This document shows, piece after piece, positions 4,873 through 27,760 of a stretch of 64,000 bases of DNA. The position numbers and the translations under genes are program-made. The stretch lies in the sequence record NZ_AP023324.1. One strand, written 5' to 3'. Each line of letters starts with the position of its first letter. Positions within the stretch are counted from its first letter, which is position 1. This DNA comes from a plasmid. The notes below the pieces were generated by a model that was not told the origin of the DNA, did no database searches, and saw nothing but the letters and a program-made list of their open reading frames with translations.

Positions 4873-5261
4873 TTCCGGCGCGTCACCGAATAGCGGCGCC
4901 GAACCGACTGGCAGAGCAGGACATGACGGCGATGATCATCCTGTAGGGTTACGACCCGAAACAGGACGAAAACCGTCCGCCAGCTGCGCGTCCGCACGAA
5001 CGGAAGCGCCAGCGACACCTTGGGGAAGCGCAGCATCACGATAAGGAACTTTGATCGAGGAATGGCGCGGGACGAAGGGGACGTGGTTGGGCACAACCCC
5101 ATCGCCCCGACGAAGCCAATTTAGATCAAGGGGTTCCGTCTGCCCATCTTGGACACATCACCGTCTCACGAATGAGACGACGGTGGCGGAGAACGTCTAA
5201 ACGGACGGTATGTCCGCACCGATCGCGGCTGCGGCCAGCCCGCGCACATCGACCCGGGCCT

Positions 5262-6548
5262 TCAATCGCGCGCAGAGCAGCGCGCTGCCGCTGATCTTGC
5301 GCTGGACGAACAGCGTCTCGACATGCGGGACATGCCGGTGTCGCGGTCGGCAATCATCGGACGCGTCTCTTCGCGGACCACCGGCACGAAGGCGCGATCG
5401 CCAAAGTCGAAGGGGCCCGGCCGCGCCATCGTATCGTCGATCGCGGCGATGATCCGGTCGACCGCCGGGCGGTGCGCGGCGACCGCCGCCTCGCCCAGAA
5501 AACCCGTCTCCACCGCGATCTCGCGGATGCGGTCGCGGTCATGCGCCAGCCCTGCCTCGATCAGCCGGCGATAGGAGGCGACCGTCTCGGGCGGCACGTC
5601 GCGCGCGGCACCGAAATCGAGCAGGACGAGGCGCTGGGTATCGGGCTGCCAGCGGTAATTGGCGAAATTGGGATCGGTCTGCATCATGCCGAAATCGAAC
5701 AGTTCATGCAGGACCAGATCGATCAGCGCGGTCATCGCGCCATCGCGGGTCACCTGATCGGCCTCGGCCAGCGTCTCGATCGGCTGGCCGGGGATATAGT
5801 CCATCGCCAGCACCAGCGGCGTGGTCAGCGACTTCTCTGGCCTGGGCACGACATAGCGCGGATCGTCCGCCAGTCGCTCGGCGAAGCGACGCATGCGGTC
5901 GGCCTCGCGGATATAATCGGCTTCCTCGGCGAGCTGGGTCTTGGCTTCCGCCAGTAGTGGCTTGAGGTCAATCGCGGGCGGGATCAGGTTGGACACGCGC
6001 AGCAACGTCGCGACATTGTCGACGTCCGAGCCGATGCTGTCGCGCACGCCGGGATATTGGACCTTGATCGCGAGCACCCGTCCATCGGGCAGGGTCGCGC
6101 GGTGGACCTGCCCGATCGAGGCGGCCGCCATCGGCGCGGCCTCGAAATGGCGGAAGCGGCGACGCCAGTCGGCGCCCCATTCGACGCGCAGCACCTTGTC
6201 GAGTTGCGCGGGCGGCATCCGGTAGGCCTGGTCACGGAGCCGTGCGAGGATGGTCTGGAGTTCGGGCGGCAACAGGTCGCCCGCATCCATCGAAATCATC
6301 TGCCCCAGCTTCATCGCCGCGCCGCGCAAATGCGACAGCCGGTCGGCGACGCGCGCGGCATTGCCGGGGGTCAGGACCAGATCGCCCAGCCTCGGCCGCT
6401 CGCCTTGCGCCAGACGCCGCGCGCCCTCGGCCAGCATGCCGCCGGCGACCCCACCCGCGAGCCGGCCGAACGCGCCGGCACGGGCGAAGCGGCCGCTGGG
6501 CACGGCGCGGTGGGTCGGCTTGTCATTGTCATTGGCCATGCCCGGCAT
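5262..6548 (-). CDS. ABC1/UbiB-family atypical kinase (AarF-like)
   Basis: Long match to the ABC1 kinase domain (…AASIGQVHRATLPDGRVLAIKVQYPGV…VLAMDYIPG…LVLHELFDFGMMQTDPNFANY…LLDFGA). The C-terminal ~25 aa may be frameshifted. Likely start MPGMANDND. Confidence 0.75.
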   Translation of the reverse strand: MPGMANDNDKPTHRAVPSGRFARAGAFGRLAGGVAGGMLAEGARRLAQGERPRLGDLVLTPGNAARVADRLSHLRGAAMKLGQMISMDAGDLLPPELQTILARLRDQAYRMPPAQLDKVLRVEWGADWRRRFRHFEAAPMAAASIGQVHRATLPDGRVLAIKVQYPGVRDSIGSDVDNVATLLRVSNLIPPAIDLKPLLAEAKTQLAEEADYIREADRMRRFAERLADDPRYVVPRPEKSLTTPLVLAMDYIPGQPIETLAEADQVTRDGAMTALIDLVLHELFDFGMMQTDPNFANYRWQPDTQRLVLLDFGAARDVPPETVASYRRLIEAGLAHDRDRIREIAVETGFLGEAAVAAHRPAVDRIIAAIDDTMARPGPFDFGDRAFVPVVREETRPMIADRDTGMSRMSRRCSSSARSAAARCSARD

Positions 6549-6780
6549 AGCGGCGGGGATAGGGGTTGGTTCCCTCGGTGCCGTGCAGGAGCCAACAGTC
6601 CGACCTGTCAGAAGGAAAACATGTCGACATGTCTTCAAGTGGGTGAGGCGACAACCGGGGATGGCTCCCGTCTTGACGATAGCAGGCAGGGAGTGAGGCG
6701 CGTCCCAATGTTCGCTACACGCCTCCGTCCATGCCGGCGGCTTGAACCTTTATTTCAATCCCCGGGCCGTGCTCCGATGG

Positions 6781-7332
6781 TCAGCGCAGGATGATGTCGG
6801 CGCCATGTTTGTGCGCCCGGATTTCTTCCTCGGTCAGGCCATTGATCTCGTGTGGGAAGATGAGCCAGTCATTCGTCTCGTGGACGAAAAAGTCGGGCTT
6901 GAGATCGGTCACGTTGCGCGACGGCTTGTAATAGACGGTCGCGACCTTCACCTCGTCCGGCAGGTTGTTCCGGCACCGCTGTTTCAGTTCCTTCAGGAGG
7001 GCGCGGATCGACCGCCCGGAATCGAAGACATCGTCGATCAGGAGCAGGCGATCCTCGGGGTTGAGGACATCCACGAGATGGCCCAGGCCATAGATGCGGA
7101 CCTGCGGCTCCTGCTGGTCGATGCCCGTATAGGAGGCAGTACGGATCGCGATATGGTCGCTCTGGATGCCGCGATATTCGAGCAGCTCCTGAACCGCGAT
7201 GCCGACCGGCGCACCGCCGCGCCAGATGCCGACGATATGGGTCGGCCGAAAGCCGGAGTCGAAGACCAGATTGGCCAGGCGGAAGGAATCCTCCAGCAGG
7301 CGGTCGGCGGACAGATAGATTTTGGTGGTCAA
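6781..7332 (-). CDS. phosphoribosyltransferase-domain protein (purine PRT-like)
   Basis: 183 aa with a PRTase fold motif (RLLLIDDVFDSGRSI) and a purine-PRT-like N-terminus. Confidence 0.65.
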   Translation of the reverse strand: MTTKIYLSADRLLEDSFRLANLVFDSGFRPTHIVGIWRGGAPVGIAVQELLEYRGIQSDHIAIRTASYTGIDQQEPQVRIYGLGHLVDVLNPEDRLLLIDDVFDSGRSIRALLKELKQRCRNNLPDEVKVATVYYKPSRNVTDLKPDFFVHETNDWLIFPHEINGLTEEEIRAHKHGADIILR

Positions 7333-7612
7333 GGATCGTCAATCATTGTTGCGGAGCGGGGCACGAAGCCATCGGCCCCTGATAGGCGCTCCATTTTGGC
7401 GGGCTCCTGCGGGAAGAGCAACCATGGTGTGACCAGACGGAGCCATGGCGAGCGCGTGGGTCGGAAACGTAACGAGGGGCTGTGCCGAGAAAAGTGCCCC
7501 GTTATCGTCTCTTTGTTTCGTCATGCGCTACCAGCTAACGCGTACAATCGTGTCAAATAATCGACGTGTCGAATTGTCTACATGTCGATTAGTAGTAAGC
7601 TCTCCTTTCTGA

Positions 7613-8048
7613 TCATCGGGAAAGCGGCCTCGGGCAGGTCTCCGCCTCATGCTCGAAAGACAGCAGGATCGGGCATGGTCCTGCCGCCCCGTTTCCGCAT
7701 TCGCGGACCAGATGGTCGAGCGCGGCCCGCGCCTTTTGCAACCCCGCGATCTGCACATCCAGCGCCGCGATCCGTTCCTGCGCCAGATCGCGCACCCGCG
7801 CCCGATCATCGGTCGCATCCAGCGCCAGCAACGCGCCGATCTGCGCCAGTGTGAAGCCCGCCTGCTGCGCCGAGCGAATGAAGCGAAGCCGCCGCGCATC
7901 CTCCTCGCCATAACGCCGGATGCGGCCCGCCCTGCCCGGCCCGGGGACGCTCGGGCGTGGCAAGCAGGCCGCGCCGCTGATAATAGCGGATCGTCTCCAC
8001 CCCCACCCCGCCCTCACGCGCCAGCCCCGCGATCGTCCAGTCGGCCAT
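7613..8048 (-). CDS. MerR-family transcriptional regulator, metal-sensor type (frameshifted near 7930-7960)
   Basis: N-terminal HTH MADWTIAGLAREGGVGVETIRYYQRRGLL in one frame. The rest (RRYGEEDARRLRFIRSAQQAGFTLAQIGALL…C..C) is in another frame. Cys-containing C-terminus (CGNGAAGPC) as in CueR/ZntR/CadR. Confidence 0.6.
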
Positions 8049-8181
8049 GATGCCACTCCAACCTGCCAATGACCTTGTGCGGATAAATGCTAGAGAGTTT
8101 GTCAGCATATTATCGCTGGACGCCAAGCGCGGCGAGATAAGGGGCTGGATCACCGGCCCCGTGATCTAGCGCTTCATGGCC

Positions 8182-9206
8182 TCAATCAGCTTCTTGACGT
8201 CGGCTACGTCCACGTGGCAGGATCAGAATGTCTTCGCCGCTTGCTACCACGATCAGGTCCTGTACGCCGACCGCCGCAACACGTACGCCGTCAGTGCGGA
8301 TCAGGCAATTCGTGGTATCGATGGCCAGCACCTCGCCGCGATGGGCATTGCCGAAGCCGTCCAGCTCACTGATGGCGTGCAGGGCATCCCAGCTGCCGAC
8401 ATCGTTCCAGCCCATGGCGACAGGGACTACCGCAACACGGTCGGCACGTTCCATCACGGCATAATCGATCGAGTCTGACGGGCATGCGGCGAAGGCGGCC
8501 TCATCGGGGCAGATGCGCTTGCCGTCGTGCTTGGCTGTACGAACCGCCTCTTCGGCTGCGGCGAGCATTTCCGGCGCATGTCGGCCGAGCTCTTCCAGAT
8601 AACGATCGGCACGGAACAGGAAGATACCGCCGTTCCAAGCGTAGTCGCCCCGCGCGAGCATGGCTTCCGCCCGTTCCAGCTGAGGCTTTTCGACAAAGCG
8701 CGCGACCTGATGCACACCCTTGGCGATCTCGCGACCGACACGGATCCAGCCATAGCCTGTTTCGGGCTTGTCGGCCGCAATGCCAAAAGTGGCGAGCCAG
8801 CCTTGGGATACCATGGGCAGCGCTGCTCGAATGGCGCTGTGGAATGCATCGAGATTTTCGATGACGTGATCCGATGGCATGACGAGCAGCACATCCTCGG
8901 GCTGGGCGACAAGAGCCGCCAGCGCGATGGCGGGTGCGGTGTTGCGGGCAACCGGTTCGGGATCAGCGCACGGGGCGGGGTGCCTGCTTGGGTCAGCTGG
9001 CTTTCGACCAGATCAGTATGGCGTTGTCCCGCCACGACAATCGGGGCTGCAAAACCATCGGTGTTGGTCCGCTGCGCGGTCAATTGCAGCATCGTCTCGT
9101 CCGATGTCAGCGCTAGCAACTGCTTGGGCATTTCCGGCCGTGACATTGGCCATAAACGCGTGCCGGACCCGCCGGACAGGATTACCGGCACGATCAAATG
9201 GTTCAT
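8182..9206 (-). CDS. manC: mannose-1-phosphate guanylyltransferase, NTP-transferase domain (frameshift near 8895-8905 in a C run)
   Basis: N-terminus MNHLIVPVILSGGSGTRLWPMSRPEMPKQLL (G-x-G-T-R-L). The frame-corrected middle reads EPVARNTAPAIALAAL…LVMPSDHV. The C-terminal part matches ManC/XanB up to the end of the nucleotidyl-transferase domain. No cupin domain follows. Confidence 0.7.
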
Positions 9207-15168: not shown

Positions 15169-15190
15169 GACTGTGCCTTTTGAGACAGGC

Positions 15191-16243
15191 TAGAGCAGAT
15201 TCCGATCAGTATGCATCGTATCCGGCAGCGGCGAAGTAGTTGGCGCATTCGGCGGGCGTGAAGGTGTCGATGGCGGCACCTATGGCGCGGGACAGATCGT
15301 CGACGGTTTGTGCAGCGGCTTTGCGCAGGAGTGCTTTCAGCTTGGCGAAGGCGTTTTCGATCGGATTGAAGTCGGGCGAGTAAGGCGGAAGGAAGAGCAG
15401 CCGGCGCCCCTTGCCTCGACCGCCTCCCGCGCCGCGACGCTTTTGTGGGCGGGCAGGTTGTCCAGGATCACAACGTCGCCCCGTTTCAGCGTTGGAGCGA
15501 GTACCCGGGCAACCAGGCCTCGAACCACGCCCCGGTCATCGGTCCGTCGATGACGAGCGGTGCGGTCATGCCCGAGAGCCGCAAGCCACCGACGAACGTG
15601 GTCGTCATCCAGTGTCCGTGCGGTACAGCCATGCGCAGCCGTTCGCCACGTGGAGCGCGTCCATAGCGGCGTGCCATCTTCGTACTGGCACCCGTCTCAT
15701 CGACGAAGACCAGCGTTTCCGGATCGAGGTCGAGCTGGCCATCGAACTAGGCCTCGCGCGCGCTCAGGACGTCGGGGCGGTCCTGTTCCTGCGCGTGGCC
15801 AGTCTTTTTTTGCGCGTATGCCCGTGACGGGCGAAGAAGCGCCACAGCGTCGATACCGCGACCGCGATCCCCTCGGCGGCCAGGCCCTCGCGCAGCTCGG
15901 CAAGAGTGATGTCGGGAGCCGCCTCGCACAGCGCCCAGATGCGCGCCGCCTTGGCCTCGGTCGTGGCCGAGCGCGTGTCACCGTCCTGCGGCTTGGCCGC
16001 TGGCTTTCCCTGATCGCGCTGAAGGGCCACCCACCTCACGGCACTGGCTGCGCTGACCCCGAACCGTGCGCGGCCGCCCGGCGTGACATGCCTCCCGAAA
16101 TGGCACCAACAACCCGCTCGCGCAGGTCCATCGATAACGGCTTGCCCATCTGACCGGCCTCCCCTCGCCGGGGACGAGCATGAATCAGACTTCACTCCCT
16201 TTGGGAATCCCTCAACGATTCACACTGATCGGATTTTGCTCTA
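15191..16243 (-). mobile_element. IS630-family insertion sequence (~1.05 kb) with ~20-bp terminal inverted repeats and TA ends
   Basis: Left end TAGAGCAGATTCCGATCAGT (15191-15210). Right end ACTGATCGGATTTTGCTCTA (16224-16243), i.e. 18/20 inverted identity. Both ends begin/end with TA, the IS630 target dinucleotide. The internal gene encodes an IS630 transposase. Confidence 0.8.
15208..16195 (-). CDS. IS630-family transposase (OrfA HTH part plus DDE OrfB part; frameshifts, one possibly programmed)
   Basis: N-terminus …RFGVSAASAVRWVALQRDQGKPAAKPQDGDTRS…DITLAELREGLAAEGIAVAVSTLWRFF. C-terminal pieces VILDNLPAHKS and …YSPDFNPIENAFAKLKALLRKAAAQTVDDL are the conserved IS630 DDE-domain motifs. Confidence 0.75.
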
Positions 16244-16389
16244 ACCTATCAGCGGCCTGAAAATGGGGAGCACGTCAACCTGCTATGACTACCGCATAAT
16301 CCATTTCACTGCCTTTGCCTATTTCACCGCTCTCGCAATCTATCTACATCGAATGGTGATTGACTTTAAATCAAGTCTTACTACCTCAA

Positions 16390-17579
16390 TCAGGTCGTAG
16401 CAATCGCATACCGAGGAAGTTCACTTTGATTATTAACAATAACTTCAGCGCGGGCAACTTCATATGCAAAATTACGCAGAAAATGACCTCGAGCAAAACG
16501 CTGTGCATTAGTGATCGCAGCCTCTGGGTCAAAGCTTGGGAGCCAAGTATCAAAGCGATTTAGTGCGTCGATCAGCGATTCTGCGGTCTGTTCATAAAAG
16601 TGAATGCCTGTCACGCCATCGATCACTGTTTCCGTGCCGCCTCCGCGGCCGAAGACGACGACCGGACGACCAGCTGCCTGAGACTCGACCGGAATGATGC
16701 CGAAGTCTTCTTCGGCAGTGAAAATCAGTGCGGAGGCTCGAGCATAGGCAGCCCGTAGGTCGTCGAAGCGCATCCGCGTGGTAAAGCGCACGTTTGGACC
16801 AGCTCGTGCCTTCAGCATTTTTAACATTGGGCCATCGCCGATGACGTGCAGTTTGCGGCCGGTTCAGTGAAGGCATCAACTGCTATATCAGGGCGCTTAT
16901 AGGGAACGAGTTGGCTGATCCAGACGCACTCGTCGCTGACATCGTCCGTTCGTTGGAACAGGTCGACATCGACTGGCGGATAGACGACGCTGGCATCACG
17001 CCCCCAGAATTTGCCGATGCGACGCCGGACAAACTGGCTATTGGCAATGATGAGGTCGGGTCGTGAGGCGCTTGAGCGGTCCCAGGCACGCATACGCGGC
17101 GCAATCAATTTCAAGTACAGCCCGGCCAGACGCCCGCTGGCAGCTCGATAGGCATGATACTGATCCCACAGATACCGCATAGGCGAATGGCAATAAGTGA
17201 CGTGAATCGCGTCGGGTCGGGTGATCACGCCTTTAGCCGGGCCAGCCTCACAGCTAATGACCAAGTCGTAGGCGCTGAGGTCGAGCGCCTCAAGCGCACC
17301 AGGCATTAGTGGGAGGTATTTCTGATATTGTCTCCGGGCGAAGGGTAGCTTGGCAATCGCTGTCGTAAAGATACGGTGTCGCTTAATAGTCTGCGACAAG
17401 GCGGAATGATCGACAACATGGGTGAAAATGTCGGCATCCGGGTACAAGTCACAGATTCGCTCCAGTACGCGTTCACCACCGCGCATTACCACCAGCCAGT
17501 AATGGATGATGGCGACCTTGCGAGGCCTGACTGGAGCAGGAGCAGGGACGTCAGGCATCGGGGGCAGGGCGGAGGTCAT
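16390..17579 (-). CDS. glycosyltransferase family 1 (GT4-like), frameshift near 16830-16860
   Basis: C-terminus has the GT1 motif (…FTAEEDFGIIPVESQAAGRPVVVFGRGGGTETVIDGVTG). The N-terminal half (ORF 16821..17579) is the GT-B N-domain. Lower GC than the flanks. Confidence 0.65.
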
Positions 17580-17648
17580 TTATGGATATCCTGTCGAAAT
17601 GAAAGCGGTAGCGGCGTCAGGAAAAGGGCGAGCTACGATCTGATAGTA

Positions 17649-18661
17649 TTACAGGCGGGGCGGCGTTTCCTGCTGGTCTAGCAGGGTCGCCTGCGCCACC
17701 CATCGCCGTCCACCTTGCCCAAGCGCGAGGCCGAAGGCCGGCAACAGGCCGAGCTGTTTCATGACGAGATAGGCTATAACCGGCGCGCCCATGCCGATCG
17801 CCGTGCACAGGACGAGATACAGCCAACTGATGGGCGGCACGTGCAAGATTTTCATCAAAATGATTCGCGCACCAGCGCCGGCAAGAATATGCATGACGTA
17901 GATTGCCATCGACATGGTACCGATCGCCACCAGCGCGGCCACATGTTCCAGCCGCTGCGAAATCCATAGCATCACCACGATCCCACCGATAGCGGCAGGC
18001 AGCATGAGTACGGAGTTGTAGTTGCTGAAGCCATGATGATGGGCGACGGCGATGGCGGCGGCGCCCAGCAGCGTTAAGCCCGCCGCAACCCCGCCACCTA
18101 TGCGTAGCAGGTCACGCAGCTTCGGACGACCCATCGCCATTCCCGCAACGAAGAAGATCGGAAAATGTAGTAATTGATGGCCAAAATTGTCTTTCGGTAG
18201 CCATTCTCCGATCAGGAAGGCAGCCAAGGCGGGACGAAGAATAGCGGCAGTGGCAGGACGCTGGCCAGCATCATGAACAGGAATAGCGCATATAAGAACC
18301 AGAAAGGTGAAATAGGTGCCCAGGCGATGTAAAGCATTTGACGGGGGTCAAAGGCATTGTTGGTGACATGGCTGAGTACGGTCATGATGGTGCCCGACAA
18401 TAGAGACCAGAGCACATAGGGATACAGCACGGAGGCGATTTTGCTGCGTCGAAAATAGGTCATCCCTTTGCCAAGGCTGTTTGGCACGTTGAGACCGGCC
18501 AAAAACATGAACAGTGGCATATGGAATGTGTACAGCGCGAAATCGAATAACTGCCAGCGGACATCCCGAAGCGTCCCCGCCGACACCAACCCACGCTCCA
18601 TGTGGCCGAGCACGACCAGGAATATTCCTATACCCTTCGAGGCATCCTGGGGGCACCTCAA
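17649..18661 (-). CDS. acyltransferase family 3 membrane protein (OatA/OafA-like O-acyltransferase), frameshift near 18215
   Basis: …GIGIFLVVLGHMERG…FHMPLFMFLAGL… plus ~8 further TM helices in the second fragment, consistent with Pfam Acyl_transf_3. Confidence 0.6.
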
Positions 18662-18795
18662 GGTTTGTCATATGGACAGCGGCAGTCGGAACAAATGGTC
18701 AACAAAAGCCTGAGCGTTGCCGCAAAGTATATTAAGTTTCGTGGGTTTGTGAGGTTGGACGAGTTGGAAGTTACCGGATCACCTCTCGTGATGTT

Positions 18796-19619
18796 TCACC
18801 CGCGGAGCTCGTAGTAGACGATCTGCCATCCATTCTTGGGACCGCGCCACTGGGTGATCTGAAAGCTATGGGCTTGTGCAGACCCGTCGAGGACGCGGCT
18901 ACTCCACCGTAGCGTTTCATCGTAACTGCTTCCGGACGATAACGCACCCGCTATGCGCCGAATGGGCAGCTTGGCGGGGAGCCTGCGGATGCGTCGGCCA
19001 TCGTTGCCGACAAAGATAACGTCTTCGGCCACGCTTCGTCTTGGAACAGCCAACCAGTCGACCTGTTTGCCGGCCTGCTCCTGTCGCAAAACAGACGCGA
19101 TCTCTTTCGCATCGCTAACGGCTTGGATTTGGAGCTGTTCATTGGTGAGTTTTGCCGAGCACTCAGGTTCGATCGCTTGTAAACTTTCTGCCGCTAATGC
19201 CTTCGATCCATCCCGACGATAGTCGTCGATTTCCAGCGCCACCCCTCAGCACTGTTCCGCCAAAGCGTCTTATATGATCCAACTCGATTTCCGCCATCGT
19301 ACAGCCCGCCGATAACAACTGCCGACCCGCTCGGATCACAGGACGGAAAGACAAGTTCGGGTCTGCGCTCGGCATGGCTCTCGACACTCATCATTGTGAG
19401 CCACCACCTTCGGCTACTCTCGGCTGCTTGCAACATGCTGGCCACAGATGGAGAGCGCGCGGTTTCGGGCGCATGTTGTATTGGCCAGGGGTCGCTTTGT
19501 GGACCGAAACTGCGTGCCGCTGCCTGACGGCCACTGGCAAGTACAGCTTCCGAGTAGGCCCGCTCCGCCTCCAGCGCGGAATTCGGCGAACTTGCCGCTA
19601 GTAGAAGCGCGAAGATCAT
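18796..19619 (-). CDS. secreted hypothetical protein (signal peptide MIFALLLAASSPNSALEA), two ORF fragments
   Basis: ORFs 19194..19619 and 18796..19242 overlap in different frames. No recognisable domain. Confidence 0.35.
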
Positions 19620-19639
19620 GGCGAAATCCTACTCCTCAA

Positions 19640-20219
19640 TCAACGTGTCGAGCGATGTACGGGCATCTGCGCCGGATGGTTGAGCGCCCGATAGAGCGTG
19701 GCATGATGACACTTCAGCAGCTTCGCCGCTTCGCGCACCGATGTGCCTTCGCCGACGAGACGCTGTCCGAGCGCGATCTGGTCCGGAGTGAGCTTGGGCT
19801 TACGCCCGAACTTCACGCCGCGCGCCATGGCTGCCGCGCGGCCGGAACTGGTACGCTGGTGGATCAGCTCGCGCTCGAACTCCGCGATGCCGGCGAACAC
19901 GGTGAGCACCATGCGTCCCGCAGGCGTGGTCGTGTCGGCCCGGGCTCGGCGAGCGAGCGCAGCCCGCTCCCGCCTCGTTCAGCTTCTCGGCGATGTCGAG
20001 CAGGTCGCGCGTCGACCGCGCTAGGCGATCGAGCCGGGTGACCACAACCACGTCGTCGTCGCGCAGCTGCTCCAGCATCCGGTCGAGTTCCGGTCGGGCG
20101 CGCTTGGCGCCGGACACCTTCTCCTCGAATGTCCGCCGGCATCCGGCCGCCTTCAGTGCCGTCTTTTGAAGCGTGAGATCCTGATCGTCGGTAGATACGC
20201 GCGCATAGCCGAGGAGCAT
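19640..20219 (-). CDS. tnpR: serine recombinase/resolvase (Tn3-family TnpR-like), frameshift near 19915
   Basis: MLLGYARVSTDDQDLTLQ…VVTRLDRLARSTRDLL…FAGIAEFERELI…C-terminal HTH (TSVREAAKLLKCHHATLYRAL). Confidence 0.75.
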
Positions 20220-20289
20220 GTCGCAGATGTGCATTGGAACACGGCTGATTAGCAACAGACATTTGCGACAGCGTCCGCCCTCGTGGCGT

Positions 20290-20343
20290 GACCGGTTGTA
20301 AACGCTCGCGCTAAGTGGCGGCATTCTGATCGCGCTATTTGTC
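20290..20343. repeat. left terminal inverted repeat of nested Tn552-like element
   Basis: 52/54 identical to the reverse complement of 23317-23370. Confidence 0.8.
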
Positions 20344-20923
20344 GGCGAGCGTCGCTACGCGGCTACCGGCTTGGTCTCGGCCGATCGCACATAGGCGTAG
20401 AGTGTTGGCTTGGAGATGCCGAGCATCGAGCAAATCTTGGCGATCGGCATCGTGTTCTCGTGGTAGAGCCTGACGGCGGTCGCGCTTGTCCTTGCCGAGT
20501 GCGGCCGGCCGGCCACCCTTCTTGCCGCGAGCGCGGGCTGCGGTGAGACCGGCACGGGTCCGCTCGCGGATCAGGTTGCGCTCGAACTCCGCCAATGCCC
20601 CGAACAGGTGGAAGGTAAGCTTGCCCGACGTGGTGGTCGTGTCGATCGCCTCGTGCAGGCTCAGCAGCCCGACCTTTTCCTCGTCGAGGTAGGTCATCCA
20701 TCCGATCAGATCACGGAGCGAGCGGCCGAGCCTGTCGAGGCGCCAGACCACCAGTGTGTCGCCGGCGCGAAGCAGCTCCTTCACCTTTTCCAATCCAGGG
20801 CGAGCGGCAGTCGCCCCGGAGGCCTTGTCGGTGATGACCTTCTCGCAGCCGGCAGCCTTCAGCGCATCACGCTGGAGGTCCGGTTCTGCTCGGCGGTCGA
20901 TACGCGGGCGTAACCGATTTTCA
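20335..20923 (-). CDS. serine recombinase/resolvase of the nested element (TniR/BinL-like), frameshifted
   Basis: MKIGYARVSTAEQ…LQRDALKAAGCEKV…VVWRLDRLGRSLRDL…FGALAEFERNLI. C-terminal HTH fragment (…LYHENTMPIAKICSMLGISKPTLYAYVR) in ORF 20355..20555. Confidence 0.7.
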
Positions 20924-21036
20924 TGCGTAGGGCCGGTGGCGCCCGATCGGGCGCGGTTTGGGAAGAAAGTCGTCATCGGCAGGTCTATGTTGCCCTAGTT
21001 TTCTTTACCGGGTAGATTTACGTCGAACAGGCCGGT

Positions 21037-22510
21037 TTGGCAACGCGAGCGGACTCGCATGGCGATGGGCAGGCAAATCTCCGTTTTCCTTACCTGCGAC
21101 ACGGACCGTCGGCGGTGACGCATCCGGCGCTTGTCCCGCCGCTGGCGATCGAGCGCTACCGCGTCCTTGAACCGCACCTCGCCGATGGCATCCCGCTCGC
21201 GGACCTCGCCCGCACCGGCACGCTGAGCGAGCGGACGTTGCAGCGCTGGCTCGGGCGCTACCGTGCCGAAGGACTTGCCGGTCTCGCGCGTCTGCCGCGC
21301 AACGATCGGGGCAGGCTGCACCTGCCGGAACATCTGGTCGAACTGACCCGCACTCTCGCCACCAAGCGCCCGCGACCCCCGGTCGCCGCCATTCACCGAA
21401 AGGTGCAGGAACTCGCCATCGCGCATGGACACCGAACCCCCAGCTATGCGGCCGTCGCGCGTGTCGTCAGGGCGATACCGGCAAGCCAGATCGCCGCAGC
21501 CTCCGATCCGGCCGTCTACCGCGACCAGCACGAGCTAGTGCATCGGCGCGAAGCCGCGACCTCGAACGAGATGTGGCAGGCCGATCATACCGTTCTCGAC
21601 ATTCTCGTGCTCGATGATGCCGGAACCCCGGTGCGTCCTTGGCTGACCGTCATCGTTGACGATCACAGCCGAGCCATCGCCGGTTACTTCCTCAGCCTCG
21701 ATGCCCCCAGTGCCCTCAACACGGCGCTCGCCTTGCGGCAGGCGATCTGGCGCAAGCCCAATCCCGAATGGATCGTCAGCGGCATTCCCGAACAGCTTTA
21801 CGTCGACAACGGCTCGGATTTCATCTCCGAGCATATCGAGCAGGCGTGCATCGCCCTCAAAATCCGCCTCATCCATTCGCTGCCGGGGCGTCCTCGCGGG
21901 CGCGGCAAGATCGAGCGGCTGTTCCGCACCATCAACGACATGTTCCTGCCCGACCTGCCCGGCCACCTGATCGCGGGCAAGCCGCTGTCGGCGCCAGTGC
22001 TCACGCTCGACGAGCTGCGCGCCCGCTTCGAGGCGTTCGTGTGCGGCGTCTATCATCGTCGCCCGCATGGCAGCACCGGCGAACCGCCGATCACGCGCTG
22101 GCAGAAGGGCGGGTTCCTGCCCGCAATGCCCGACAGCCTTGAACAGCTCGACATGCTGCTCGTGCACGTGCCCAAGCCCCGTAAAGTGCTGCGCGACGGC
22201 ATCCGTCTGATGGGCAGGCGCTATGTCGAACCCACGCTCGCGGCCTTCGTCGGCGAGCAGGTCGAGGCGGTCTATGACCCCGCGACCTGACCGAGATCCA
22301 CGTCTACCACCAGGGGCCGGTTCGTCTGCCGTGCGCTCAGCTCCGAGCACGCTGGGCACCCGTCGTTGCGCGCGATCCAGCGCGCCCGGCGCGGCGCGAA
22401 GGAGCGCGACAAGCAGGTGCCTGCCCCCACGGAGACCTTCGATGGCGACCAAGAGGATACGGCTTCCCGGCCCACCACCTACCGAGGGCTCCGGCTCTAC
22501 GCCGCTGACG
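21037..22510 (+). CDS. tniA: TniA/Tn552-p480-like DDE transposase (Mu-type integrase core), frameshift at ~22290
   Basis: N-terminal HTH domains (GTLSERTLQRWLGRYRAEG). Integrase core (MWQADHTVLDILVLD…VIVDDHSRAIAGYF…YVDNGSDFIS) contains the D,D,E residues. The C-terminal tail continues in another frame (DLTEIHVYHQGRFVCRA…). Confidence 0.7.
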
Positions 22511-23318
22511 ATTGAGTTCCTGGTCGAGCAGCCGTTCACGGCGACCCGCGAACATGCCCGGTTCGTCGAGTTTGCCGAAGCCTGCGCGCACTACCGCTAT
22601 ATCGGCGTGTGTCATGGCCGGCCGGGCGTCGGAAAGACGCGATCGGCGCGCGAGTTTTCCAGCTTCCCCGACCGGGGAATATGCCGCGCTCCGTCCCATT
22701 GCCGCGCTCCTTGGCGAAAAGGTCGCTCGCTGCCGCGCCGTCTTCTACACCGTGTCGGTCAGCAACACGCCCAAGACGATCGACGCGGTGTTGGGCCTCA
22801 ACCTCATTAAGCTGGGCTATGCCCGGCTGACGGTCGCGGGCGGCTCGCAGGACGAAATCACCCATGACGCCGCCCGCATCGCCTGCCCCCTCGTCATCGT
22901 CGACGAGGCCGACCGCCTGACCATAAAGTCGCTCGAACATCTCCGCGACATGGCCGATCGCCACGGCTTCGGGCTGATCCTGATGGGTATGCCGGGCTTG
23001 GAGAAGCGCCTCGCCCGCTATGCCCAGCTCTACTCGCGGATCGGCTTCGTCCACGAGTTCAAACCGCTTACCGAGACCGAAATGCGGCTGCTGCTCGCGA
23101 CCCACGCCGGCGATTTCGGGATCAGCTTCGACCCGGCCCAACTCGACGCGATCGAAGCGCAGGCAGCCGTGATCCGCATCACGCGCGGCAACTTCCGGCT
23201 CATGGAGCGCCTGTTCGCGCAGATGCGGCGGATCATGACCCTCAACCGCGTCGAGGAGGTCACCGCTGACATCGTTCAGGCCGCGCGCGATTGCCTCGTC
23301 ATCGGACCCGGCAACTGA
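22442..23318 (+). CDS. tniB: TniB/Tn552-p271-like AAA+ ATP-binding transposition protein, frameshift near 22670
   Basis: …YIGVCHGRPGVGKTRSAREF (Walker A) …LVIVDEADRLTIKSLEHLRD (Walker B/DEAD-like) …GLILMGMPGLEKRL. About 270 aa. Confidence 0.7.
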
Positions 23319-23370
23319 CAAATAGCGCGATCAGAACGCCGCCATTTAGCGCGAGCGTTTACAACCGGTC
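23317..23370. repeat. right terminal inverted repeat of nested Tn552-like element
   Basis: Reverse complement of 20290-20343 with two mismatches. Confidence 0.8.
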
Positions 23371-23455
23371 AGGGCCGCTGTCACGAAACTTGAGAGTTAC
23401 GCGACACCTCGCACGTGTCGGCCATAAACTATACGCTCCCGGACAGGGGTGATCG

Positions 23456-26414
23456 ATGGCCAGACGCGATCTGTTAACGGGCGACGAACGCCGCGCGTTG
23501 TTCGGCGTGCCCCTCGACCATGCCTCGCTCGCCAAGCATTACACGGTTGCCGATGAGGACCGGCCACTGATCGAAGCGAAGCGCGGCGACGCCAACCGGC
23601 TCGGCTTCGCGCTGCACCTCGCCCTGCTGCGTCATCCCGGCTTCGGCATACGCCACGACGATGTCGTCCCCGATTTTCTGATCCGGCACCCGCGCAACTC
23701 GACATCGCGCCCACAGCGTTCGAGGGCTACGCGCATCGCGCCCAGACCCGGCTCGAACACGCACGGGAGGCGATGGAGCGTTTGCGCCTGCGCGCGTTCG
23801 AGGCGGCCGACGTCCCCGGCGCGCTCGGCGCAGCCACCCGCGCGGCGGAAGCGACCGAACGGGGCAAGCCGATCGCCGCGGCAGTGCTGGGCCATTTGCG
23901 TGCTGCCCGGATCGTTCTGCCCGCGCCCGCCCGTATCGAGCGGATCGGGGTGGCGGGGCGCGCCATGGCGCGCCGCCTCGCGGCCGACACGCTGGTCGAT
24001 GCGCTTGCTCCGGAGCAGGTGACGGGGCTGGATGCGTTGCTGATCGTGGACCAGGATCGCAGCACGACGCCGCTCGCGTGGCTGCGCGACACGTCGGACA
24101 GCCCGACCGCGCGCAATCTCGCCGGCATTCTCGCCCGGCTCGCGCACGTGCGCCGGCTCGGGCTCGACCCGGGCATGGCCGGCCGCATCCACGAGCACCG
24201 CTTCGAGCAGCTCGTGCGCGAAGGCCACGTCGCGCCCGCGTTCCTCCTGTCCGACTACTCGCTCCGCAGAAGGCGCGCGACACTCGCCGCAGCCGTCATC
24301 GACACGGAAGCGCGGCTCGCGGACGCCGCGATCGAGATGTTCGGCAAGCAGACCGGCCTCCTGTTCGCCAGGGCGGGGCCGCGCAGAAGCGCGGCATCGA
24401 GGCGACCACACGCGACGTGAACCGGCTCATGCGGCTGCTGGGCGCCACGGTCGGCGCACTCCGGGTCGCGCGCGAGGACGGGTTGGACGTCTGGGCGGCG
24501 CTCGACGACGGGGTGGGCTGGACGAGGCTTCTGGACGCCGAGAGCGAGGCGACCGCGATCGCCGACCTGACTCGCGACGAGCCGCTGATCCGCGCGGCGG
24601 GGCGCTACATGACGATGCGGCGCTACGCGCCCGCGTTTTTTGACGCGTTCCGGTTCAAGGCGGCAGGCTCGCGCGACGGCGTGCTCGGCGCGATCAAGGT
24701 CGTGCGCGCGCTGAACGCGACCGGGCGGCGAGACGTACCGGCCGATGCGCCCATGCCGTTTTCCAGAAAATGGAAGGCGGCGATCACCGAGGGCGGCGTC
24801 ATCGACCGCCGTCGCTACGAAACCGCCACGGTCGCGACCGTGCGCGAGCGGCTCCAATCGGGCGACCTGTGGGTGGAGGGTACGCGCGAACACCTGCGCT
24901 TCGACAGCTATATGCTCCCGCCCGGCAAAGCGGCCGAGATCGCGCTCACGCTGCCGTTCGACACCGACGTCGGCCGCTACTTGGAGGGGCGCGCCAGGCT
25001 GCTCGACTGGCGGTTGCGCCGGTTCGCAGGCTCGCTGAAGCGCGGCACGCTCGACGGCGTGGAGCTGCGGGGCGGTAACCTCAGGGTCAGCCCGCTCGCG
25101 GCCGTAACGCCCGCTGCGGCCGACAGGCTGGACGCGGCCGTCGACCGGCTCATGCCCCGCGTGCGCATCACCGAGCTGCTCGCCGAGGTGGAAGCCCGCA
25201 CCGGGTTCCTGTGCGCATTTCCGGAACTGCGCTCGGGCCGCGCCCACTCCAACCCGCAGGCCGTGCTCGCCGCGATCGGCAGACGCGACGAACCTCGGCA
25301 TCGAGCGCATGGCCAACGCCAGCCGGGCGTCACCTACGCCCAGCTCGCCTGGACGCATGGCTGGTACGTATCGGAAGAGAATTACGCGGCAGGGCTGCGC
25401 CATCTGGTGGACGCGCAAGCCGCGCTGCCGCTCACGCGCGTGTGGGGCGACGGCACCGCGTCGAGCTCGGACGGGCAGTTCTTCCGCTCGGGCAGGCGGG
25501 GCGCGGCCGGCAGCACCAACGCGCGCTACGACCGGGAGCCGGGGCAGAAGATCTACGCCCATGTCGCCGATACCTACGCGCCCTACCATGTCCGGCTGAT
25601 CTCGGCGACCGCGGCGGAGGCGCCCTATGTGCTGGACGGGCTGGTCGCGCACGGCTGCGGCATCGAACCCGCGACCCACTATGCCGATACGGGCGGCGCG
25701 TCCGACCACGTGTTCGCGCTCGCGCACCTACTCGGCTTCCGGTTCGTGCCCCGCCTGCGCGATCTAGCCGATCGCCGGCTCGGCCTGTTCCCGGGCACGG
25801 CCCGCCCCGAGGCGCTCGCGAAGCTGATCGGGCGCCCGTTCAACATCGCTGCCATCCGCGAAAGCTGGGACGAGATCGTCCGGCTCGCCGCGTCCGTGAA
25901 GGCCGGCGTGGTGCTACCGTCGGTCATGCTGAAGAAGCTGGCCGCGTACCGTCGCCAGAACCGGCTCGACTTCGCGCTCCAGGAGCTGGGCCGGATCGAG
26001 CGCACCCTGTTCACGCTCGACTGGCTAGAATCCAGGGCGCTCCGCCAGCAGTGTCAGGCTGGGCTCAACAAGGGCGAGGCGCGTCACACGCTCGCCCAAG
26101 CCGTGTTCGTCCACAAACAGGGCCGCCTGCGCGATCCGCAGTTCGAGAACCAGGCGCTGAAAGCGTCCGGGCTGACGCTGGTCACCGCCGCGATCGTGTA
26201 CTGGAACACGCTTTACATGGGCCGCGCCGTCGAGCATCTGCGCGCCAGCGGCGAGCCCGCGCCCGACGAGCTGCTCGCCCATGTAGCCCCGCTAGGCTGG
26301 CGACACATCAGCCTGACCGGCGATTACCTCTGGCAAAACGCCGCTGCCGAGCTCGATCAAGACGGCTACCGCGCACTCAACATCGCCGGCGGACCCGGAG
26401 CCAAGGTGGCCTGA
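23456..26414 (+). CDS. tnpA: Tn3-family transposase TnpA (~985 aa; frameshift(s) in first third)
   Basis: N-terminus MARRDLLTGDERRALFGVPLDHASLAKHYTVADEDRPLIEAKRGDANRLGFALHLALLRHPG is the canonical Tn3 TnpA start. The 778-aa ORF 24078..26414 carries the Tn3 DDE region (…YHVRLISATAAEAPYVLDGL…HYADTGGASDHVFALAHLLGFRFVPRLRD…). Confidence 0.85.
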
Positions 26415-26439
26415 GCCGCCCTGTTCGCTACCTGTTCAG

Positions 26440-26477
26440 CTTACCGCTGTCCGTGTCACAAACCTTGAGGTGCTCCC
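26440..26477. repeat. 38-bp Tn3-family terminal inverted repeat (IR-R)
   Basis: Reverse complement is GGGAGCACCTCAAGGTTTGTGACACGGACAGCGGTAAG, with GGG at positions 1-3 and TAAG at 35-38 as in Tn3/Tn21 IRs. Located 26 bp after the tnpA stop. Confidence 0.75.
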
Positions 26478-26699
26478 ATCCTGCCATATGTAGCGGGCCG
26501 ACGATCGGCTGAGTTTGTTGGTTGCTGTTTCGTATACCTGCGGTGAGGTTGTTGGCCACCTCTGCGGCGAGGGGGCTGGTTCGTCAATCATCTAGAAATC
26601 TTTCTGACATTCGCACGATGCTAGCCCGGCTTTGATGCGGGGGATAGACGAAGGCCAGTCTGCCCGCCCATTCCTGATGATAGCGTGTCACCCGCAGGC

Positions 26700-27760
26700 T
26701 TAGCGACGATCCCCGGTATTTTCCAATGGGCTTTGGGGAAGATGGGATGTACTGCAGGCAATAGCCTCAATCGCGTCGGCTAACGTATCAGCCGATGTTA
26801 TCCAACTGAACCGGGTCAGTTGAGCATGTCCCACAGCGATCCGCTGCGCGCGCCATGCCTCGTCCTCCGCCGCACGCTGCATCCATCGTGCCAGCGCTCG
26901 ATCGTCATGCGGATCAAAATATTCGGCTGCATCGCCACAGGTTTCCCTGGACGGCCTGCGCCGTACTAGCCAGTACCGGGCAATCGTTCGCCATTGCCTC
27001 CAAGGGAGGAATACCAAATCCTTCGTACAGGCTAGGAAAGATGAGCGCGCGGGCCGAACGCATCAACCCGGCAACTTCGGCATCGTCCAGTCTGCCCGGC
27101 AGAATGAGTCCTGGCCCCTTGGGTGGAAGATGGCCGTGTCCGAACACCGACCCGTCTAACCGTCCGACCGCGACGAGCCGGATGGGTGAGGGCTGCAACC
27201 GCGCCAGGGCGCGAATGGCGACGGCTAGATTTTTGTTAGGGGCAATATTGCCAAGGATCAGGAAATAGGGGGTGTTTTCCAAATGAAGACGATCGACGAT
27301 CTTCATATCAGGTGTGATGGAAAGGTGTTCCGCGCCGTTCTTGGCAACTATGATCTGTTGACTAGGCACGCGGAGCACTTCGGCCAGCTCGCGCTGTGAA
27401 AATTGCGATACCGTCGCCAAGTGCGCGCGCCGGGCCAGCAGACGATCGATCGTATTATGCACCCAAGCATAGGTCTTTCCGAAATTCTCCGGGTGCCGCT
27501 GTACCGCAGCGTCGTGTATCACCACAAGCTGGCGGCGCAACGTAACCGGCCCGGTCGCACCCAAGCACAAAGCGGCCCCCCTGCGCGCTGCCCAAGCAAA
27601 TTCCAGCTGATCCCAGACATGCCCGCCGCGTCTCCCGACGACCCGTTGTTCGATATGCCGCAATCCGGCATCGCGCGCACCGTGCGGGGTAAGTATGACG
27701 TAAGGGTTGGCCGCCCGGCCTGCGCCTACGCGCTGGTCGAGGCGCGGACGATCTCGTTGG
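26700..27760 (-). CDS. glycosyltransferase family 1, frameshift near 26930-26960
   Basis: …ALIFPSLYEGFGIPPLEAMANDCPVLAS… (GT1 C-domain motif). N-terminal GT-B half in ORF 26914..27663. Confidence 0.6.

Follow-up and report, generated by a model that had tools for sequence, protein, structure and literature searches.

Transposon Tn552 encodes the proteins p480, p271 and Bin, generates 6-bp repeats of its target, and has as its hotspots the resolvase recombination (res) sites beside the sin and res resolvase genes (PMC3276174). The res hunters of the Tn5053 family are known from Tn3-family carriers, mostly at resI-resII, where they generate 5-bp repeats, need TniQ, and place IRo beside the resolvase gene (PMC7765201). 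Transposons that hunt res sites cause much of the nesting in resistance and catabolic plasmids. Here we investigate 64,000 nucleotides (nt) of the Sphingomonas plasmid NZ_AP023324.1, referred to as the window; coordinates are window positions, and L001, L002 etc. are the loci with which it was compared. On sequence comparison, positions 18649-26477 are very probably a Tn3-family transposon, the res region of which has been invaded by a Tn552-family element of about 3.07 kb (20297-23363) that carries no cargo. Nesting in res sites is a known type of event. In this case the agent is of the Tn552 type rather than the Tn5053 type, and the bacterial group is a new one for the behaviour.

Two transposons and their empty sites

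Inverted repeats (IRs), target duplications and empty sites are present for both elements and the nesting is real, as the original prediction had it. The empty site of the inner element is found in the Sphingomonas sp. gentR plasmid NZ_CP144671.1 (L001), where a Tn3 relative that is 99.2-99.7% identical lacks the 3.07-kb segment and contains a single ACCGGT. The empty junction there reads GCGTGACCGGTCAGGG, whereas the window reads GCGTGACCGGT followed by TGTAAACG at the left junction and CGTTTACA followed by ACCGGTCAGGG at the right. This comparison defines the inner element as 20297-23363, with TGT...ACA ends and a 6-bp duplication. Likewise, the uninterrupted acyltransferase gene of the Sphingomonas paucimobilis plasmid NZ_CP065671.1 reads GAGGCATCCTGCCATATG, with a single ATCCT, and the window has GAGGCATCCT followed by GGGGGCACC at the left outer junction and GGTGCTCCC followed by ATCCTGCCATATG at the right. 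The outer transposon is therefore 18649-26477, with a 5-bp duplication. Target duplications at the element ends and a relative with an uninterrupted Tn3 element had been proposed as checks on the nesting, and both were found: ACCGGT (6 bp) for the inner and ATCCT (5 bp) for the outer element, and the empty form in NZ_CP144671.1.

The nesting had also been said to record the order of events. The empty relative places the Tn3 element before the insert; the composite may then have entered the acyltransferase gene, or the insert may have arrived later. The window-type junction was seen in no other record, with no match among metagenome contigs and no PLSDB record covering 80% or more of the nested region. 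The features are as follows, with the strand where there is one and protein lengths in amino acids (aa) for intact copies:

18644-18648: target duplication ATCCT, left copy (5 bp; empty site in S. paucimobilis NZ_CP065671.1)
18649-18686, + strand: IR-L, left IR of the outer transposon, 38 bp (GGGGGCACCTCAAGGTTTGTCATATGGACAGCGGCAGT), matching the right IR at 31/38 positions; the alignment to L001 and L002 begins here
18796-19619, - strand: passenger open reading frame (ORF), a hypothetical protein of 274 aa in intact relatives (WP_126014483.1 in L001 and L002), with a 1-nt deletion near 19233 that splits it
19640-20219, - strand: tnpR, Tn3 serine resolvase, 193 aa, with 1-nt deletions at 19942 and 19963 (Pfam Resolvase, HTH_7)
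20220-20296: tnpR-proximal part of the Tn3 res region, with TGTCGC/GCGACA half-sites at 20219-20230 and 20259-20270
20291-20296: target duplication ACCGGT, left copy (6 bp; single ACCGGT at the empty site, L001 4646-4651)
20297-20343, + strand: IR at the tniR end of the inner element, 47 bp, starting TGT (repeat search, empty-site comparison)
20355-20924, - strand: tniR, the inner element's own serine resolvase, 190 aa, with three frame breaks in the window (Pfam Resolvase, 1e-46 for an intact copy)
20925-21114: divergent tniR-tniA intergenic region, presumed internal res and promoters (conserved blocks)
21115-22515, + strand: tniA-like DDE transposase, 466 aa, GTG start, with breaks near 22278 and 22313 (HTH, rve, Mu-transpos_C)
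22442-23318, + strand: tniB-like AAA+ ATPase, 292 aa, with a break near 22674 (AAA_22, 8e-21)
23317-23363, - strand: IR at the tniB end, 47 bp, ending ACA (repeat search, empty-site comparison)
23364-23369: target duplication ACCGGT, right copy (empty-site comparison)
23379-23406: presumed crossover site I dyad, 28 bp, TGTC(A/G)CGAAACT-TGAG-AGTTACGCGACA (12-4-12 symmetry)
23456-26414, + strand: tnpA, Tn3-family transposase, 988 aa, with several frame breaks in the window (DUF4158, DDE_Tnp_Tn3)
26440-26477, - strand: IR-R, right IR of the outer transposon, 38 bp (GGGAGCACC...GGTAAG; IR alignment)
26478-26482: target duplication ATCCT, right copy (5 bp; empty site)

By far the best inverted repeat of the region is at 20289-20343 and 23317-23371, with 55-nt arms that are 96% complementary. 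The near-perfect 54-bp repeats predicted to bound the insert are real in this sense, but the ends of the element are IRs of 47 bp, identical at 45 of 47 positions. The repeats appear to be 54-55 bp long because the flanking duplication ACCGGT is palindromic (plus a chance T/A). The terminal 18-mer TGTAAACGCTCGCGCTAA is present in the 64-kb window only at 20297 and, reversed, at 23363 (0.02 expected). Each end contains two direct TCGCGCTAWNTG repeats, 24 bp apart, which are presumed to be transposase-binding sites. A layout of arrayed repeats has been described for the ends of Tn7, Tn5053 and Tn552 (PMC8649781).

The intact inner element is 3073 bp and has only three ORFs between its IRs. These are the resolvase, DDE transposase (rve/Mu-C) and ATPase (AAA_22) that had been predicted, although their intact sizes are 190, 466 and 292 aa, not ~490 for the transposase and ~270 for the ATPase. 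There is no TniQ, TnsD-type or TnsA gene, and the absence of a tniQ-like gene had been recognized. At its start tniB overlaps tniA, and the tniB stop codon is within the IR. Two blocks of the tniR-tniA intergenic region, CTAGTTTTCTTTACCGGGTAGATTT (20995-21019) and AAATCTCCGTTTTCCTTACC (21075-21094), are invariant among seven aligned copies whose protein identity goes down to 80%.

The outer transposon has the features of the Tn3 family, with a large DDE transposase, IRs of about 38 bp (GGGG...TAAG; 31/38) and a 5-bp duplication. The 20-mer at the IR tip occurs only at the 18649 end and at 26458-26477 of the 64-kb window (0.01 expected). The Tn3-type tnpA at 23456-26414, the right IR and the divergent serine resolvase at 19640-20219 had all been correctly identified. 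An intact orthologue of TnpA contains PF01526 and PF13700 and scores 923.5 bits with NF033527 (cut-off 500), and the pieces in the window are 95-100% identical to it. By tblastn, tnpR is 100% identical to WP_007406331.1, in two frames. It is divergent from tnpA, and the presumed res, made up of the TGTCGC-type half-sites and the 28-bp dyad, lies between the two genes.

The left end had been misplaced. A candidate IR-L at 16265-16300 matches the right IR at only 14/38 positions without gaps, which is the level of chance, and the DNA there is identical in the transposon-free plasmid NZ_CP065671.1. The true boundary is about 2.4 kb away (18649 versus 16265). At 16266-16278 the sequence GGGAGCACGTCAA equals the tip of the right IR at 12 of 13 positions, with no further extension, and is also in the transposon-free plasmid; this tip match probably misled the earlier call. 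It is directly to the right of an IS630-family element (IRs at 15184-15219 and 16215-16250).

Frameshifts in the window copy

All five genes of the two elements (tnpR, tniR, tniA, tniB and tnpA) and the passenger ORF are frame-split by insertions and deletions (indels) in the window. Is the window copy a dead, decaying nested relic in which six genes have been interrupted? Or do the frameshifts come from the determination of the sequence? Compared with near-identical references, the window differs at 42 columns, 22 of which are in reference CCWGG motifs, yet these motifs make up only about 1.3% of the reference positions (1.9-2.7 sites per kb). Indels account for 20 of the columns, with 12 falling at CCWGG and 6 in homopolymers. 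Differences concentrated at CCWGG, with others in homopolymers, are at 18889, 19942, 20554-20555, 20882, 22538-22539, 22674, 23690, 23763-23764, 24304-24305, 24374-24375, 25278 and 25325.

The changes are stereotyped: CCTGG has become CACGG at least four times, bases have been lost inside CCAGG or CCTGG, and homopolymers have been shortened. The surrounding DNA is 99.2-99.7% identical to intact copies, and independent frameshifts in six genes with almost no ordinary substitutions are unlike decay. A relic is therefore unlikely, although of the alternatives considered here it keeps the most credit. The frameshifts are probably nanopore-type base-calling errors at a methylated motif and not gene decay, and for this reason the element in the window is probably intact. 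The pattern suggests that the host has Dcm-like methylation and that its genome was assembled from nanopore reads only. Other apparent pseudogenes in the window are to be distrusted, and those of the assembly are probably artefacts.

There is also a G-to-A difference at 23383, in the left half of the dyad (TGTCACGAAACT, compared with TGTCGCGAAACT in all other copies). The base may have been miscalled, or the crossover site of an already interrupted res may truly have changed.

Target choice and distribution

The insertion was predicted to fit the biology of res hunters, and comparison of the copies flanked by duplications supports this. In all ten such insertions with usable flanks, one end of the element precedes the start codon of a serine-resolvase gene by 45-101 bp. 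Those of the consensus element are the window (ACCGGT), L002 (CCTCGTG), L011 (GAGCCGC), L029 (ATCTGC), L048 (AGCAGC), L051 (GATCAC) and L058 (GAACGG), and those of diverged relatives are L064 (GCCGTGTC), L072 (CGACGT) and L077 (GCCGTT). A further insertion, L076 (GGGGAAT), has a flank that finishes at the contig end and was excluded from the distance count. The duplication is 6 or 7 bp in ten of the eleven, and 7 or 8 bp in L064. There is one resolvase gene in the 64-kb window that does not belong to the inner element, and the matching interval of about 110 bp is 0.18% of some 61 kb, so that chance cannot account for ten out of ten. The tniR end faces the resolvase gene in four insertions and the tniB end in six. 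Additional junctions, available from one side only, are likewise in res regions.

At least three unrelated types of res have been hit: the tnpR-tnpA intergenic region of the Tn3 element, the family represented by L011, L048, L051 and L058, and a Sin/beta-like type (L029). The second of these comprises four diverged homologous res regions that carry the insertion at the same relative position with different duplications. In the L029 type, a 26-bp dyad is followed by direct GATGCAAAA repeats, and the junction in L055/L056 is 1 bp away. In each type, the duplication is on the resolvase-gene side of a 26-28-bp dyad resembling site I. The gap from the edge of the dyad to the duplication is 20 bp in L002, 19 in L011, 18 in L029 and about 19-21 in L048, L051 and L058. 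From centre to centre the distance is about 34-37.5 bp, except in the window, where a value of 26 bp brings the two closer by roughly a helical turn.

From their symmetry, size and conservation, these dyads are likely to be site I and the gap the spacer between site I and the accessory sites. In the Tn3 element, the dyad at 23379-23406 (12-4-12) has 11/12 symmetry in L001 and L002, and it is conserved in a Tn3 relative (77% identity in TnpA) whose flanking DNA has diverged. We infer that it is crossover site I of the Tn3 res, and the TGTCGC/GCGACA half-sites are presumed to be accessory resolvase sites.

The Tn3 res has been entered repeatedly. In L002 the same res is hit 11 bp away, in the opposite orientation, with the duplication CCTCGTG. 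The Tn3 relative with 77% TnpA identity has three further junctions, 24, 25 and 29 bp from the dyad, and a scan of metagenomes for element ends by the dyad found the CCTCGTG site used in the other orientation (L091) and a junction shifted by 1 bp (L092, L093). At the two related Tn3 res sites together, the junctions are of at least six types, with each orientation at CCTCGTG taken as its own type, and the insertions occupy at least five positions in a stretch of about 15 bp. The CCTCGTG pair is at the same res position in opposite orientations (L002 4645-7717 and L091 496-3567), and represents either two independent hits of a hotspot or a flip in situ through the 47-bp IRs. Two variable IR positions travel with the interior of the element, which both scenarios allow.

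In L051 the insertion is between two divergent serine-resolvase genes, with their starts 69-72 bp and 94-100 bp from the element ends. This intergenic region is a shared or double res.

Could the proximity to resolvase genes reflect something other than res architecture, such as a preference for a short sequence, a promoter or AT-rich DNA, or survivorship bias? The targeting is deduced from surviving copies only, and the targets of the L011/L048/L051/L058 type are homologous and not fully independent samples. However, no motif is common to the duplications ACCGGT, CCTCGTG, GAGCCGC, ATCTGC, AGCAGC, GATCAC, GAACGG, CGACGT and GCCGTT; three unrelated res families are hit at one position relative to the dyad; and survivorship would not cluster insertions within a few bp. 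An explanation of this kind is very unlikely.

Selection of the target by the architecture of res can be set out as a series of steps. The transposase would bind the two repeats in each 47-bp end, as the repeats suggest, and the ATPase, by homology, may bring it to the target DNA. Strand transfer is staggered by 6-7 bp, as the duplications show. Transposition would be replicative, with TniR resolving the cointegrate at an internal res; what points this way is that the element lacks TnsA but encodes a resolvase, and that many of its copies have hybrid flanks. The pattern observed across three unrelated res families suggests that the target is picked by architecture and not by sequence: a res, on the resolvase-gene side of the dyad, in the presumed spacer between site I and the accessory sites. 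By analogy with Tn552/Sin and Tn5053, the feature that is sensed may be the bent res with resolvase bound to it.

A more specific proposal is that this is a minimal selector of the Tn7/Mu superfamily, in which transposase and ATPase alone read the bent, resolvase-bound spacer of res and direct insertion to a single face of the helix, at about 26 or 34-37.5 bp from the centre of crossover, for any resolvase family and in either orientation. We put this forward tentatively and think it slightly more apt to be wrong than right. If true, the TniB-like ATPase or the transposase would recognize a protein-DNA complex or a DNA bend directly, and the sphingomonad element would be a compact Gram-negative model of Tn552-type target choice. 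The natural insertion map, with three res families, one preferred position and both orientations, suggests targeting without a TniQ-type adaptor.

More than 40 sphingomonad plasmids carry the inner element at about 99.4-99.5% identity; one intact copy of 3073 bp is in Sphingobium herbicidovorans pSHV1 (NZ_CP020540.1 248989-252061). Among species-representative genomes, about 60 from Sphingomonas, Sphingobium, Novosphingobium and relatives encode a transposase that is 100% identical, and in these the element is often a collapsed contig of about 3.07 kb. Copies of the 3073-bp unit have 23 distinct flank pairs. Relatives with 75-92% protein identity are present in Sphingomonas, Mesorhizobium and Aureimonas, and at E <=1e-5 the wider family of the transposase numbers over 2500 among the candidates scored. 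Thus the sphingomonads harbour a very successful relative, free of cargo, of the Tn552 lineage, which is mainly known from staphylococci and enterococci; this relative is near-identical across dozens of species. In diverged relatives additional DNA separates the IR from tniR, about 3.6 kb in L072 (1565-8254) and 0.6-0.8 kb in L064 (4557-8251) and L068 (3732-7620), and the consensus copies L004 and L021 are themselves interrupted by insertions of 1.5-1.7 kb. Forms that bear cargo and forms that are nested therefore exist in the family.

Composites of the Tn3 element and the inner element have at least six different outer flanks (L002 3005-10852, L088 1500-9336, L090 with its right end at 6464, L091, L093 and L094). 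The sister composite, with the reverse orientation at CCTCGTG, has differing outer flanks in L002, L088, L090 and L094, and the related composites L091 and L093 are elsewhere. From these different flanks, a Tn3 element with an interrupted res still transposes and the composite moves as a unit. Composites of this kind should be annotated as nested elements. The L088 composite (pKira_2) is inside a type IV coupling-protein gene.

One context is common among the copies. A left flank, GGACGCTGGGCCGATCGGGACCGCGAACGG, is shared by L003, L005 and about 30 other loci (element at 5179-8251), with no duplication and with right flanks that vary. L058 (504-3576) retains the GAACGG duplication beside a resolvase gene, and L054 has the common flank reversed, at the opposite end of the element. 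A single ancestral insertion in res, followed by recombination between copies or by intramolecular replicative transposition, would fit this pattern.

Relationship to known systems and surroundings

The family assignment was made against the Tn552 copy of the Staphylococcus aureus plasmid NZ_CP062313.1. Between the transposase and p480 the identity is 41% over 440 aa (94%; E 2e-124), with the motifs WQADHT, D(N/H)GSDF and GKIER conserved. For the ATPase and p271 it is 38% over 265 aa (E 3e-70), with Walker A GxPGVGKT and Walker B IVDE conserved, and TniR is 52% identical to the adjacent Tn552 Bin-type recombinase (E 6e-67). The likeness extends to an ATPase gene just 3' of the transposase gene, the presence of neither TniQ nor TnsA, TGT...ACA ends with repeated subterminal motifs, duplications of 6-7 bp, insertion in res sites upstream of resolvase genes, and frequent rearrangements around inserted copies. 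These comparisons support placing the inner element with Tn552; of the earlier Tn552/Tn5053-like label, only the first half has held.

In our own reading of the Tn552 sequence in pMW2, the ends are TGTCAC...GTGACA with a 7-bp repeat, TAATTGT, and two inverted 16-bp repeats enclose the right end, which is 67 bp upstream of sin. The geometry is that of the inner element; Sin sites I and II were not mappable with confidence in pMW2. The work of Rowland et al. in 2002 reportedly tied res architecture to Tn552 targeting.

There are also differences from Tn552. The inner element has no cargo in its 3073-bp consensus, whereas Tn552 carries blaI-blaR1-blaZ, and its hosts are Alphaproteobacteria (sphingomonads, with relatives in Mesorhizobium and Aureimonas) rather than Firmicutes.

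Several points weigh against reading the insert as a mobile, res-seeking element of the Tn552 family. Its IRs are 47 bp in contrast to about 116-120 bp in Tn552, though it is doubtful that IR length defines the family, and tniR is divergent from the transposase gene, whereas in the Tn552 copies examined the resolvase gene is upstream and co-directional. No convincing subsites of the element's own res emerged from a simple search for dyads between tniR and tniA. The res subsites of every target were assigned from dyad symmetry, and the gap of 9 bp in the window, versus the usual 18-23 bp, makes the geometric rule inexact. Most copies, being in the common context, have no duplication, so the independent events amount to some 10-15 junctions. 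The preference for res sites and the mobility of the element are deduced from comparison of copies, and the frameshifts could be real in the window copy.

The classical Gram-negative res-site hunters are the Tn5053/Tn402 (TniABQR) family, and membership of the insert in that family would account for its res targeting, its lack of TnsA and its TniA/TniB-like pair with a serine resolvase. Elements of the Tn5053 family are well known as insertions in the res of Tn3-family transposons (PMC7765201). The parallels go further: a TnsB/TnsC-type transposon is found in a Tn3-family res in both cases (e.g. Tn6603::Tn502, Tn1013-type carriers and Tn21::In2), one carrier can be hit independently at different positions, and the composite is mobile as a unit. 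However, the inner element has no TniQ gene and, compared with the family features given in PMC7765201, its duplications are 6-7 bp and not 5 bp and it uses both orientations with no fixed preference. Its transposase is only about 29-30% identical over 60-70% of its length to the Tn402/Tn5053-type TniA of enterobacterial plasmids, versus 41% over 94% to p480. Membership in Tn5053/Tn402 is hardly credible on the absence of TniQ, duplication length, orientation and identity, and was rejected.

The closest solved structure to the transposase is TnsB of a type V-K CRISPR-associated transposon (CAST), ShCAST (1.9e-43), and the ATPase has weak matches to structures of MuB-type and TnsC ATPases. A TnsB-TnsC transposase-ATPase core is common to the inner element and the type V-K CAST/Tn7-like elements. 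In contrast to these, the inner element has no TniQ, Cas12k, guide RNA or TnsA, and its target choice apparently comes from a resolvase recombination site. A full-text literature search found no paper describing the inner element; ISfinder or TnCentral may already name it.

The original prediction had itself allowed that the 54-bp repeats might be res subsites that had been duplicated, or that the TniAB-like module might be an ancestral part of the Tn3 transposon, and the exact placement between tnpR and tnpA, with a nested form that is commoner in databases than the empty one (seen once only, in the gentR plasmid), might suggest as much, but the single ACCGGT of the empty relative refutes it, the 3073-bp unit is present in 23 unrelated flank contexts, and one and the same res has received independent insertions that differ in position and orientation and have duplications of their own, so we give this virtually no credence.

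The sole passenger gene of the outer transposon encodes the 274-aa protein of the WP_126014483.1 type, which had no Pfam or NCBIfam match; its N-terminus resembles a signal peptide. The gene that the transposon has interrupted is an acyltransferase (Acyl_transf_3) gene on the - strand (17649-18648, and from 26483 onward). It is flanked by family-4 and group-1 glycosyltransferase genes (16390-17579; 26914-27663). The surroundings are a plasmid-borne polysaccharide cluster, which is intact in plasmid unnamed2 of S. paucimobilis FDAARGOS_908.

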